DNA from: a virus | Lineage: Duplodnaviria > Heunggongvirae > Uroviricota > Caudoviricetes | Direction: 5' to 3' (one strand) | IMG/VR virus record: IMGVR_UViG_2724679058_000003 | Length of the DNA: 64,000 bases | In this document: piece after piece, positions 29,925-32,392 of the stretch | Layout: each line of letters begins with the position of its first letter | Numbering within the stretch: position 1 is the first letter of the stretch | Translations under genes and position numbers: made by a program | Notes under the pieces: model-generated | Told to the model about the DNA's origin: nothing | Seen by the model: only the letters and a program-made list of their open reading frames with translations | Databases searched by the model: none

Positions 29925-32184
29925 AAGAGCTGTGCTATGGATCTGTTTGCAGTGGAATTGAAGCCGCGAGTATTGCCTGGGAACCGTTGGGTATGCGTCC
30001 GGTGTGGTTTGCTGAAATCGAGTCTTTTCCATCTGCCGTTCTTGCGCACCGCTGGCCCCATGTCGCCAACCTTGGCGACATGACAAACTTGCCAAAAAAG
30101 TCCTGGCTGGGGAAATCGAATCCCCTGATGTGCTCGTCGGGGGTACGCCTTGTCAGGCATTCAGTATCGCGGGCTTACGTGGTGGGCTTGATGATGAACG
30201 CGGCGCGCTAACTTTGAAGTATGTGGAGCTTGCAAATGCAATTGACGACAAACGGTCTGAGTCCTTCCTCAAACCGACAGTTATCGTCTGGGAAAATGTC
30301 CCAGGAGTCCTGTCATCGGCAGATAACGCCTTCGGATGTTTCCTTGCCGGATTGGCTGGAGAAGATGCGCCATTTGAACCAGGTGATCGACCTGAATCAG
30401 GAAAAAGTAACGCGTTCTGGCGGTGGGATGGCAAAACCGGTTGCCATGCTCCAAAGTGGCCGCAGTGTGGTTGTATTTATGGACCGCAGCGAAAGGTGGC
30501 CTGGAGAATCCTTGATGCCCAATACTTCGGAGTGGCACAACGACGCCGACGCGTGTTTGTTGTCGCAAGTGCTCGAACAGACCTCGATCCCGCAACGGTA
30601 CTTTTTGAGTTCAAAGGCGTGCGCCGGAATATTGCGCCGAGCCGAAAAAAGAAGGAAATCGCTTCCGCCATTATTGCAAATGGCGCTGCAATCAGTGGCG
30701 AAAGCCTAAATCCATGCCTACACGCTGACATGCCACCCGGTATGAAATCGACGAAAGCCGTAAACGCTTTCAGGATGGCAGCATTTGGGGAATATATTGA
30801 CGATGAAACCGCATCGACAGTAAAGGCAAGAGATTTTAAAGATGCCACTGACCTTGCCGTTTTTAGCAGCACAGGAGCAGGTTTTTGGTCAGAAGGGCAT
30901 GGTACATTGCGGGCACGTGAGCAAGAAAGCCATGAGCATCTTGTTACATTGGCTTTTCCTGAGCGTATGAGCGGTACACAACATGCTGCAACTAAGAATA
31001 CTTCACCATCTCTAATGGCTAAAAATCCAACAGCTGTTTGCTATGAAGTAAGAAACGCAGAAGTAGCTGTCCGCCGTCTTACCCCTGTCGAATGTGAAAG
31101 GCTGCAAGGTTTTCCTGATGGGCATACGTTGATCCCGACGGAAAAGCGTAAAAAAGTTAATTCAGATGAACTGGCATATCTTCGCAATCACTATCCAGAT
31201 TTAAGCGAAGAAGAGGCCGCGATGCTTGCAGCTGACGGACCGCGTTACAAAGCGATCGGCAATAGTATGGCAATACCAGTAATGCGCTGGATTGGCGATC
31301 GGATTACTAAGTCCGTATGTCGGCAGAAAGAAGGAAGTGAAACAAAAGAGCGAAAAGTTAAACCAGCGGCAGAATTCGAACGGTCCATATTCAAATGGGC
31401 TGGTGGAAAATTTGGTGTTCTGGAACAAATCTTTCGCTATTTGCCAGAAGGGAAGCGCCTGATTGAACCTTTCGTTGGTGGCGGAGCTGTCTTCATGAAT
31501 GCCGGATACCAGGAAAATCTGCTAAATGATGTGAATGCTGACCTGATTAACTTTTACAAGACTCTGCAACGCGAGGCGCATTCACTTATCACTCTGGCAC
31601 ATCGTTTCTTCCAGGACTACAACACACAGGAAGGATACCTGGCAGTACGGAATGCGTTTAACAAACAAGTCTATGATGATTTACATCGCGCAGCGGCGTT
31701 TTTGTTCCTGAACCGACATTGTTTTAACGGATTGACGCGTTACAACCAGGCCGGTGAGTTCAATGTCGGTTATGGGAAGTATAAAACTCCGTATTTCCCA
31801 TTACAGGAGATGGAAGCCTTCCTCGGTGCGGAAGGGCGGTCTGAGTTTGTATGCGGTGATTTTGCAGCGGTGATTGAAGCTGCCGGAGAAGGAGATGTCA
31901 TCTTTTGCGATCCGCCGTATGAACCGCTTCCAAATACAGAGGGATTCACGAACTATTCCGGTCATGACTTTAAGTTTGAAGAGCAAAAACGCCTGGTGTC
32001 TCTGTTGACGGATGCTCATCGTCGAGGTGCAAAGGTTCTCATTACTAACAGTGGCGCGCCAAACATCAGAGAGCTTTATCATGACAGTGGCTTCAGAGTG
32101 GAACCTCTTTTTGCCAGACGTTCTGTGTCTTGTAAGGGGGACACTCGAGGTGTAGCTCATGACGTTTTGGGTATATTGCTCTAA
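29921..32184 (+). CDS. dmt: Dcm-Dam fusion DNA methyltransferase Dmt, interrupted by a -1 frameshift at 30094..30100
   Basis: C5-MTase motif I ([10 protein letters not shown]) at 29921..30100 in frame 2; motif IV ([12 protein letters not shown]) onward in frame 1; C-terminal Dam-like domain ([12 protein letters not shown]). The two frames join to 754 aa. Confidence 0.85.
30094..30100 (+). other. A_AAA_AAG heptamer at the dmt frame junction
   Basis: CCA AAA AAG in the upstream frame; a -1 slip continues with GTC CTG GCT in the downstream frame. Confidence 0.6.
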
Positions 32185-32191
32185 TAAATTT
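32175..32191 (+). promoter_or_regulatory. C1-type operator (perfect consensus) with overlapping inverted second copy and promoter-like hexamers
   Basis: ATTGCTCTAATAAATTT; CTAATAAATTTATTAG palindrome gives a second inverted operator at 32186..32202; TTGCTC then 17 bp then TAATAT. Confidence 0.8.
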
Positions 32192-32210
32192 ATTAGTGTA
32201 ATATCGCCTC

Positions 32211-32392
32211 AATGAATCGTGATTTATAGAGCGATTTAGCTGTTAGCCGCGACAGGCGCGGCGGTAAGCATGGCTGGGCCTAGTCCTCCCAGACAAACCA
32301 CCGAGTTGCCAGGTTGACCATGCGCCTAAGTGGCAACTCCGAAGTGCGTTACGAGCTTCCAGTTTGCCCATCTTCGGGTGGGCGTTTTTTTT
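32211..32392 (+). ncRNA. Candidate operator-controlled small RNA
   Basis: No ORF over 15 codons with an RBS; internal hairpins GCCGCG-ACAG-GCGCGGC and GTTGCCA...TGGCAAC; ends in a strong terminator. Confidence 0.3.
32366..32392 (+). terminator. Rho-independent terminator
   Basis: GCCCATC-TTCG-GGTGGGC followed by GTTTTTTTT. Confidence 0.8.

Follow-up and report, generated by a model that had tools for sequence, protein, structure and literature searches.

The best-described relative of the locus reported here is the dicBF operon in the Qin prophage of Escherichia coli K-12, which carries the gene for the small RNA (sRNA) DicF. DicF occurs in forms of 53 nt (with a 5′ end made by RNase E and a 3′ end at the terminator), 72 nt and 190 nt (with a 5′ end at an RNase III cut), and the 190-nt species is seen on Northern blots in E. 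coli and accumulates when RNase E is inactivated; this processing by RNases E and III to a short Hfq-binding sRNA is known for Qin only (PMC9438474; PMC10448788). The dicBF operon gives terminated 1,146-nt and read-through 1,608-nt transcripts (PMC10448788). Here, we analyzed the interval between dmt and the tRNA genes (positions 32175-32392) in a 64,000-nt stretch of Caudoviricetes DNA (IMG/VR record IMGVR_UViG_2724679058_000003; the whole stretch is referred to as the window), which a preliminary description had read as a candidate operator-controlled small RNA. We hold it to be on balance probable that this interval comprises the ban-operon promoter-operator, repressed by C1, and the first ~180 nt of a transcript of the DicF-precursor type; to judge from the sequence, a discrete C1-controlled RNA of ~180 nt is plausible.

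The 801 bases around the site are 99.0–99.5% identical to phage P1, RCS47 and JL22 and ~95% identical to P7. Because of this high identity to P1, and because the window also bears P1 hallmarks (three tRNAs, a sok-like RNA and C4 antisense RNA), we assign the window to a P1-family phage or phage-plasmid. The control elements at the left end of the interval are as follows.

32175-32191, plus strand: C1 operator Op72a (Obana), a perfect copy of the 17-bp consensus ATTGCTCTAATAAATTT that overlaps the dmt stop codon (AF234172 68667-68683).
32186-32202, minus strand: C1 operator Op72b (Obanb), the inverted copy ATTACACTAATAAATTT with 2 mismatches and a 6-bp overlap with Op72a (AF234172 68678-68694).
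32176-32204, plus strand: promoter P1ban, with the −35 hexamer TTGCTC (32176-32181), a 17-bp spacer and the −10 hexamer TAATAT (32199-32204).

The perfect operator copy and the overlapping inverted copy named in the preliminary description were recovered with 0 and 2 mismatches, respectively, and both P1ban hexamers lie within this divalent operator. Allowing for up to three mismatches, the operator 17-mer occurs nine times in the window while 0.38 occurrences are expected, and none of 100 shuffles reached nine. The remaining seven operator-like sites (at 11096, 12759, 28654, 42520, 46142, 46191 and 48283; one to three mismatches) are presumably other known P1 operators. The promoter-like hexamers of the preliminary description are where it had placed them and are annotated as a promoter in P1, but on sequence alone they are weak evidence: they agree with the sigma-70 consensus at 7 of 12 positions, and a generic promoter scan of the region did not list them. 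In AF234172, exactly these hexamers are entered as 'sigma 70 promoter P1ban' (the qualifier 'predicted' is given to the second promoter P2ban but not here), and the divalent C1 operator Obanab, formerly Op72ab, is noted as 'controls expression of ban'; in the P7 record, the same operator pair is said to control the tRNAs and downstream genes. On the basis of the GenBank annotation, C1 would bind Op72ab and repress the promoter there, and transcription would start at about 32211.

Behind the promoter, the interval consists of three parts.

32246-32341, plus strand: leader domain of ~95 nt with three hairpins, an enclosing helix and a pseudoknot.
32339-32365, plus strand: P1-type variable 3′ module of 27 nt, CCGAAGUGCGUUACGAGCUUCCAGUUU, with a small predicted hairpin and a short U-rich spacer.
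32366-32392, plus strand: intrinsic terminator, with a GC-rich 7-bp stem (GCCCAUC/GGUGGGC) and UUCG loop (32366-32383) followed by U8 (32385-32392).

The terminator hairpin, which was found by scan, folds with −12.8 kcal/mol (z = −3.8), an energy that none of 200 shuffles reached. The strong terminator of the preliminary description is therefore present, and its U-tract lies ~180 nt from the putative start as had been estimated. That the interval holds no real open reading frame (ORF) was also borne out, because only three non-ATG ORFs of 22-41 codons overlap it on the plus strand, all of them run through the terminator, and no Shine-Dalgarno sequence was seen before them on inspection. A search of Rfam, proposed earlier as a check, gave no family for the interval at the gathering threshold or at E ≤ 10; the terminator hairpin alone drew matches, to nuoG and RyhB, which we regard as noise.

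The connection to DicF rests on the leader domain. In blastn searches with 32205-32400 against 5,426 complete E. coli genomes, 32247-32341 was matched at ~78% identity in 4,243 genomes, often several times per genome and always in unannotated sequence, and the domain also occurs in the P1 family and many lambdoid phages. The K-12 and O157 copies are flanked by ydfC (or an equivalent gene) and dicB, and there 32247-32341 aligns with ~97 nt that end ~25 nt upstream of DicF. Because the 190-nt form exceeds the 53-nt form by ~137 nt, the RNase III cut is placed ~137 nt upstream of DicF, i.e. just before the conserved block, so that the leader is part of the 190-nt form. At the expected RNase III cut, an additional outer helix, formed by GUUGUGG with CCACAAC or GCUGCAAC, is found in many lambdoid copies and is absent from P1. 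The P1 record carries a misc_feature 'dicF-like region' at 68791-68892 (~32299-32400 in the window). DicF itself (RF00039) was not matched in 32100-33400 even at E ≤ 10, compared with a family threshold of 48 bits, and the P1 sequence after the leader block does not align with DicF; Rfam places DicF proper at L002:3122-3173 with 76.7 bits and scores the O157 copy at 75.0 bits. As read from these alignments, the 'dicF-like' label is that of the segment upstream of DicF, the precursor domain, and not that of DicF; the P1 3′ module occupies the position held by DicF in Qin without being homologous to it.

We also considered that the RNA could be a true orthologue of DicF and block cell division through pairing with the ribosome-binding site of ftsZ. 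Its place in the locus is that of DicF, and the window copy holds ACUCCG, which is also found in the region of DicF that pairs with the ftsZ ribosome-binding site. This hexamer reads ACGCCG in P1 and ACACCG in P7, however, RF00039 is absent where the K-12 and O157 copies score 75–77 bits, the 3′ module cannot be aligned with DicF, and the duplex energy of the module with the ftsZ start region (−80 to +60; RNAduplex) is no better than that of shuffles, in a crude test that also fails to separate real DicF from shuffles. With neither a family match nor an alignable module, we rejected orthology to DicF, which we regard as very improbable.

To examine the leader domain, a pattern made from its most conserved loop was used to collect at least 120 viral contigs, which together with phage records gave 67 distinct sequences, of which 27 were aligned. 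The architecture was taken from RNAalifold on the 27-sequence alignment and manual reading and comprises the following helices.

32247-32251/32257-32261, plus strand: hairpin 1 (HP1).
32262-32265/32300-32303, plus strand: enclosing helix P2.
32274-32278/32288-32292, plus strand: hairpin 2 (HP2).
32304-32311/32331-32338, plus strand: hairpin 3 (HP3).
32268-32273 with 32318-32323, plus strand: pseudoknot between GCAUGG and CCAUGC in the HP3 loop.

In this alignment, 96.3% of the cells are paired, as opposed to 34–55% when the partners are slid by 1-3 columns. Compensatory changes are found in P2 (U-A to C-G in four sequences), HP3 (U-A to C-G in six sequences), the pseudoknot (U-A to C-G in the P1 type, with U-G intermediates) and HP2 (variants CGGGG/CCCCG, CUGGG/CCCAG, CUGGGG/CUCCAG, CAGGUG/CACCUG and GGGGU/ACCCC); altogether, six pairs change on both sides, and since the sequences are related by descent, some of these changes are single events. 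Single-sequence folds of the P1 and K-12 leaders give the same architecture, with modest z-scores. A covariance model, R1, built from the 27 variants, among them the window sequence, scores 32232-32346 at 104.2 bits (E 1e-29) and found no second copy elsewhere in the window, for instance at the other C1 operators. The domain matches no family in Rfam 15.

What follows the leader differs between loci. Among 60 distinct downstream sequences (155 loci), 58 have a terminator-like hairpin whose U-tract ends 39-95 nt after HP3; in the window, this distance is 54 nt. By sequence, the modules in between form ten classes, of which canonical DicF is the commonest and the P1 type (AAGUGCGUUACGAGCUUCCAGUUU plus hairpin) the second, with a short Escherichia marmotae type as another. 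In lambdoid prophages, the leader is followed by at least eight non-DicF, terminator-bearing modules (IMG/VR loci L070, L034, L025, L052, L097/L103, L008/L029/L106, L015 and L128), and phage pPE4 (L129) has two tandem copies of one module. Many modules start with a C/A-rich CCACAAC(A) stretch, which presumably resembles mimics of GcvB targets such as AgvB.

Because the leader stands directly before a terminator, it could alternatively be a cis-acting processive antiterminator, in function analogous to the put RNA of phage HK022, that modifies the very polymerase that made it, letting a fraction pass the sRNA terminator and those beyond. This would agree with the regular spacing of 39-95 nt to an intrinsic terminator in 58 of 60 distinct loci, with the location of the domain in an early operon leftward from the repressor gene (for the lambdoid phages that were examined) or directly after P1ban (in P1), with conserved loops and a pseudoknot that suggest a specific partner, and with the need of the genes past the terminator (dicB in Qin; tRNAs and ban in P1) for read-through, of which the 1,608-nt transcript is an example (PMC10448788). 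The put RNA shares with the leader that it is a structured untranslated RNA upstream of terminators in a lambdoid early operon, a likeness of function only, and differs in architecture, because it has ~70 nt in two stem-loops plus a triplex and binds the β′ zinc-binding domain (PMC9378689). Homology to put was rejected: blastn gave nothing in HK022, R1 gave nothing in 16 kb of HK022 including putL (L132, L133), and only the 9-mer GCGCGGCGG is common to both. Moreover, the Qin copy lies ~800 nt from its promoter, after three ORFs, and persists in a stable processed RNA (PMC10448788), and a role in maturation or stability fits this at least as well; we therefore consider antitermination unlikely. 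Tentatively, as a possibility rather than the probable case, we suggest that the leader is an undescribed class of structured RNA that marks a slot for interchangeable terminator-bearing small RNAs and acts in cis on their termination or maturation, and that in P1 this slot is under C1 and has been expanded with a tmRNA-derived RNA (after transfer-messenger RNA), tRNAs and tRNA-like hairpin cassettes.

Returning to the C1-repressed promoter with its DicF-precursor-type transcript, the following sequence of events is the most likely. In the lysogen, C1 on the two overlapping operators would cover both hexamers and block P1ban. Once C1 is lost, RNA polymerase would start at ~32211 and make first the pseudoknotted domain of ~95 nt, then the P1-specific segment of 27 nt and then the terminator. 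Terminated transcripts would constitute a discrete RNA of ~180 nt, the P1 counterpart of the 190-nt pre-DicF, which RNase E may trim to a short 3′ fragment with the terminator hairpin and U-tail, the usual shape of Hfq-binding sRNAs. Transcripts that read through would continue into the tmRNA-like RNA, tRNA-Asn, tRNA-Thr, tciABC, a further tRNA and ban. The sequence features, their P1 annotation, the homology at both flanks and the conserved fold of the leader are observed or on record; how efficiently transcripts terminate, how they are processed and any action of the 3′ module in trans are inferred.

Between the terminator and ban, no plus-strand promoter is annotated in the P1 record and none appeared in the promoter scan; therefore, the tRNAs and ban would depend on read-through from P1ban. 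Because P1ban is annotated as the promoter of the ban operon, because the operator is recorded in P7 as controlling the tRNAs, and because no promoter was found to intervene, the interval doubles as the 5′ leader of the tRNA/ban operon. The preliminary description had taken such a leader as an argument against its small RNA, and this is in part what we found, given that P1ban is annotated for the ban operon and the P7 operator for the tRNAs. Of its central proposal, operator control and the promoter-to-terminator unit stand, both being annotated in P1, and the discrete RNA is plausible by homology, while the region is an operon leader as well. By analogy with DicF, which is made in this dual way, a discrete sRNA and an operon leader would not exclude each other.

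Several observations weigh against our reading. In addition to the divergence of the ACUCCG hexamer and the ftsZ comparison described above, the longest complement to the 3′ module within the 64-kb window is 11 nt (in tciA, at 34171) and within the range of shuffles; the leader alone has unremarkable thermodynamic z-scores (−1.5 and −0.9); and the long A/U-rich single strand that RNase E cleaves in pre-DicF is missing from the 3′ module, and a short mature form is uncertain. The literature searched yielded no RNA data for P1, a P1 transcriptome included, and the ~180-nt RNA is therefore a prediction. Finally, ban has to be expressed from an operon with so strong a terminator 180 nt from its start, which suggests that the main role of the element could be cis-regulatory.

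This leads to the main rival, in which the leader is a purely cis-acting attenuator: the terminator would set the flow from P1ban to the tRNAs, tciABC and ban, and the ~180-nt RNA would be a by-product without function in trans. Such an attenuator accords with the annotation of P1ban for the ban operon and the lack of another plus-strand promoter before ban, with the lack of target complementarity above chance in the ftsZ start region and the 64-kb window, and with the structured domain, not the 3′ module, being the most conserved part. On the other hand, the module is identical from CCGAAG onward in P1-type and P7-type loci although HP2 of their leaders differs, which suggests constraint on the module; the homologous arrangement in Qin yields a trans-acting sRNA and a stable 190-nt species; and the anatomy of the module, with hairpin, U-rich spacer and terminator with U8, is that of an sRNA. 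We regard a purely cis-acting role as a possible explanation to which we give less than an even chance.

Directly downstream of the terminator, we identified the most unusual feature seen at the locus, a candidate RNA derived from tmRNA.

32396-32570, plus strand: tmRNA-derived RNA directly after the terminator, which would be a read-through product.
32396-32405, plus strand: GUUGUUCGUC motif at the start of the tmRNA-like RNA.
32454, plus strand: resume codon GCA in the context UAAAU-GCA.
32454-32483, plus strand: tag ANDDLMMVAA of 10 codons, with its stop codon (32484-32486) in a hairpin loop.
~32500-32534 and ~32536-32570, plus strand: two H-type pseudoknots after the tag.

Nothing is annotated here in the P1 record. 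Homologous elements are present at L004:1540-1720, L005:1655-1835 and L006:2480-2680 and in L153, L169 and L236, and the tags of related elements read ANDDLMMAAA, ANDDVVLMAA, ANDDLMLMAA, ANDDAVLMAA and ANDDYIRVAA. All four stems of the pseudoknots show compensatory changes across five lineages (P1, Klebsiella phage-plasmids with ANDDVVLMAA and three metagenomic lineages), read directly from the sequences without a formal score, since MAFFT loses the register of the stems. RF04321 scores 26.5 bits in the window and 39.6 bits (E 2e-6) in the Klebsiella homologue, both below the gathering threshold, and the same 17-mer of the tmRNA-like RNA is found in bona fide tmRNAs. ARAGORN called no tmRNA at default or 90% thresholds; at 80%, the permuted and standard candidates for a tRNA-like domain differ between loci, are implausible and lack G3:U70 and CCA, and they were rejected. 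A tRNA gene follows the element in P1, L169 and L236, and the Klebsiella locus has only a T-arm-like sequence. In sum, 32396-32570 appears to be derived from tmRNA, with tag frame and pseudoknots retained but no detectable tRNA-like domain. Nothing relevant on tmRNA-like RNAs of phages was found in the literature searched, and if functional, this RNA would be an unusual phage route to ribosome rescue. At 32385-32405, the window reads TTTTTTTTCTGGTTGTTCGTC after the terminator where P1 reads TTTTTTCAGGGTTTTCGTC; the window variant contains UUUUCUGGU, a 9-mer that spans the 5′ end of DicF, and this match is probably due to chance.

The proximity of this element raises the question of whether the hairpin at 32366-32383 is mainly part of the tmRNA-like RNA, as a capped analogue of the acceptor stem, rather than the 3′ end of an sRNA, in which case our transcript would join parts of two RNAs. 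D6-like plasmids are homologous to the window from 32363 on, i.e. over hairpin and tmRNA-like RNA, and keep both even where the leader is absent, as in L004; in the distant L153, L169 and L236, a closed hairpin lies 6-12 nt 5′ of the conserved GUUUUCGNC. This motif resembles GGAUUCGAC of E. coli tmRNA, which we take to stand just after the acceptor strand. Against this, 6-8 U follow the hairpin in P1 and D6-type loci, as in a canonical terminator, and do not follow it in L153 and L169, and in L005, leader, short spacer and the same hairpin form a standard leader-plus-terminator unit; furthermore, the hairpin could be both terminator and part of the tmRNA-like RNA, as these roles are not exclusive. 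We rate it as improbable that the hairpin belongs mainly to the downstream RNA. The hairpin was also considered as a permuted acceptor stem and rejected as such, because no T-arm precedes it and there is no CCA.

The remaining landmarks of the locus are the following.

30130-32184, plus strand: ORF of dmt (stop codon 32182-32184), the left neighbor of the interval.
32858-32933, plus strand: tRNA-Asn(GUU), downstream in the same operon (tRNA scan, P1 record).
32936-33011, plus strand: tRNA-Thr(UGU), downstream in the same operon (tRNA scan, P1 record).
~33780-33900, plus strand: post-slot segment just 5′ of tciA, homologous to the Qin sequence from the DicF terminator to dicB (aligned with L002:3200-3330).

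The post-slot segment includes the fourth copy of repeat family D1. Because both the leader and ~33780-33900 are homologous to Qin, P1 has both flanks of the dicF slot, 1.45 kb apart, and the alignments show 32246-33900 as an expanded version of this slot upstream of tciA, containing the P1 module and terminator, the tmRNA-like RNA, tRNA-Asn, tRNA-Thr and several repeated long hairpins. These hairpin cassettes (32573-32670, 33012-33105, 33227-33317, 33432-33550 and 33714-33811) are closed by CACAACAGGTAAGGG ... CCCTTACCGTTGTGATGA(ATGCG...); one has a perfect T-arm-like GAGGGUUCGAAUCCCUA at 33062-33078, and others have ACGGG(T/G)TCATATCCCAATC, in common with sequences that stand behind the sRNA terminator of cdtI and further lambdoid phages. 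The minus-strand ORFs plp and upl, which the P1 record places across the cassettes, may be doubtful if the region codes for RNA. Just 5′ of tciA, at 33895-33925, there is a partial operator-like site, AATCTAATAAATAT, with 11/17 matches to the C1 consensus, and the motif is absent from the homologous Qin sequence. In the D6-like plasmids, ~700 nt poor in ORFs lie between the preceding gene and the shared terminator hairpin (L004:750-1500, L005:750-1500), with repeated GTGTTAGAAA motifs that are possibly a D6-type operator, and L005:2788-2925 has a sub-threshold Rfam match to STnc100 (40.8 bits). Elsewhere in the window, Rfam calls at the gathering score are a C4 antisense RNA with a1/b1 target sites (immI region) at 11173-11379 and a sok-type antitoxin RNA at 14828-15002, and at 34648-34723 ARAGORN calls tRNA-Met(CAU) for the gene that the P1 record names tRNA-Ile2 (ileX-like, with a lysidine-modified CAU anticodon).

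Taken as a whole, the sequence features of the preliminary description were found in their places and its interpretation held in part, in a region that had already been annotated: the promoter-operator is in the P1 record, the idea of a dicF-related RNA behind the promoter was recorded in 2004, and the region is no new discovery. What is added is that 'dicF-like' refers to a precursor domain, that this domain is a conserved pseudoknotted RNA, that it is coupled to interchangeable terminator modules, and that the slot behind it is expanded in P1. The first product upon derepression of the ban operon would be a structured RNA of the DicF-precursor type and not a protein, and we found no account in the literature searched of phage tRNAs and the Ban helicase being gated by a leader RNA and terminator. 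The label 'dicF-like' hides a modular design in which one conserved pseudoknotted domain is common to Qin-type prophages, lambdoid phages and P1-family phage-plasmids, with a different small-RNA module in each. The domain offers a handle for new phage sRNAs, because one can search for it and read what follows, and raises the question of whether it acts as a processing pro-domain, a stabilizer or an antiterminator.

Compared with known systems, the window has the same operator pair, hexamers and placement at the end of dmt as P1 Op72ab/P1ban (annotation by Lobocka et al., GenBank AF234172) and does not differ from P1 in substance, apart from a few substitutions 3′ of the terminator. With sRNAs made by early termination in operons, such as SroC from gltIJKL (reviewed in PMC9438474), the P1 locus shares that one promoter would give a short regulatory RNA by termination as well as a longer message by read-through; it differs in that its terminated RNA comes first in the operon, at the 5′ end, and does not follow a coding region, and in that the P1 RNA is predicted from sequence. 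The likeness is closest to the 190-nt pre-DicF from the dicBF operon of Qin in K-12. Both have a homologous 5′ domain of ~95 nt (~78% identity) with the same helices and pseudoknot, followed by a short module that ends in an intrinsic terminator, both lie in an early operon that is under a repressor and whose downstream genes depend on read-through, homology is also seen in the segment behind the slot, and the lengths are similar (190 nt and ~180 nt in P1). They differ in that the P1 3′ effector module is unrelated to DicF, that the P1 5′ end would come from initiation at P1ban and not from RNase III, that the repressor is C1 in P1 and DicA in Qin, that the P1 slot is expanded by ~1.4 kb through the tmRNA-like RNA, two tRNAs and repeated hairpin cassettes, and that the slot is followed by tciA in P1 and by dicB in Qin.

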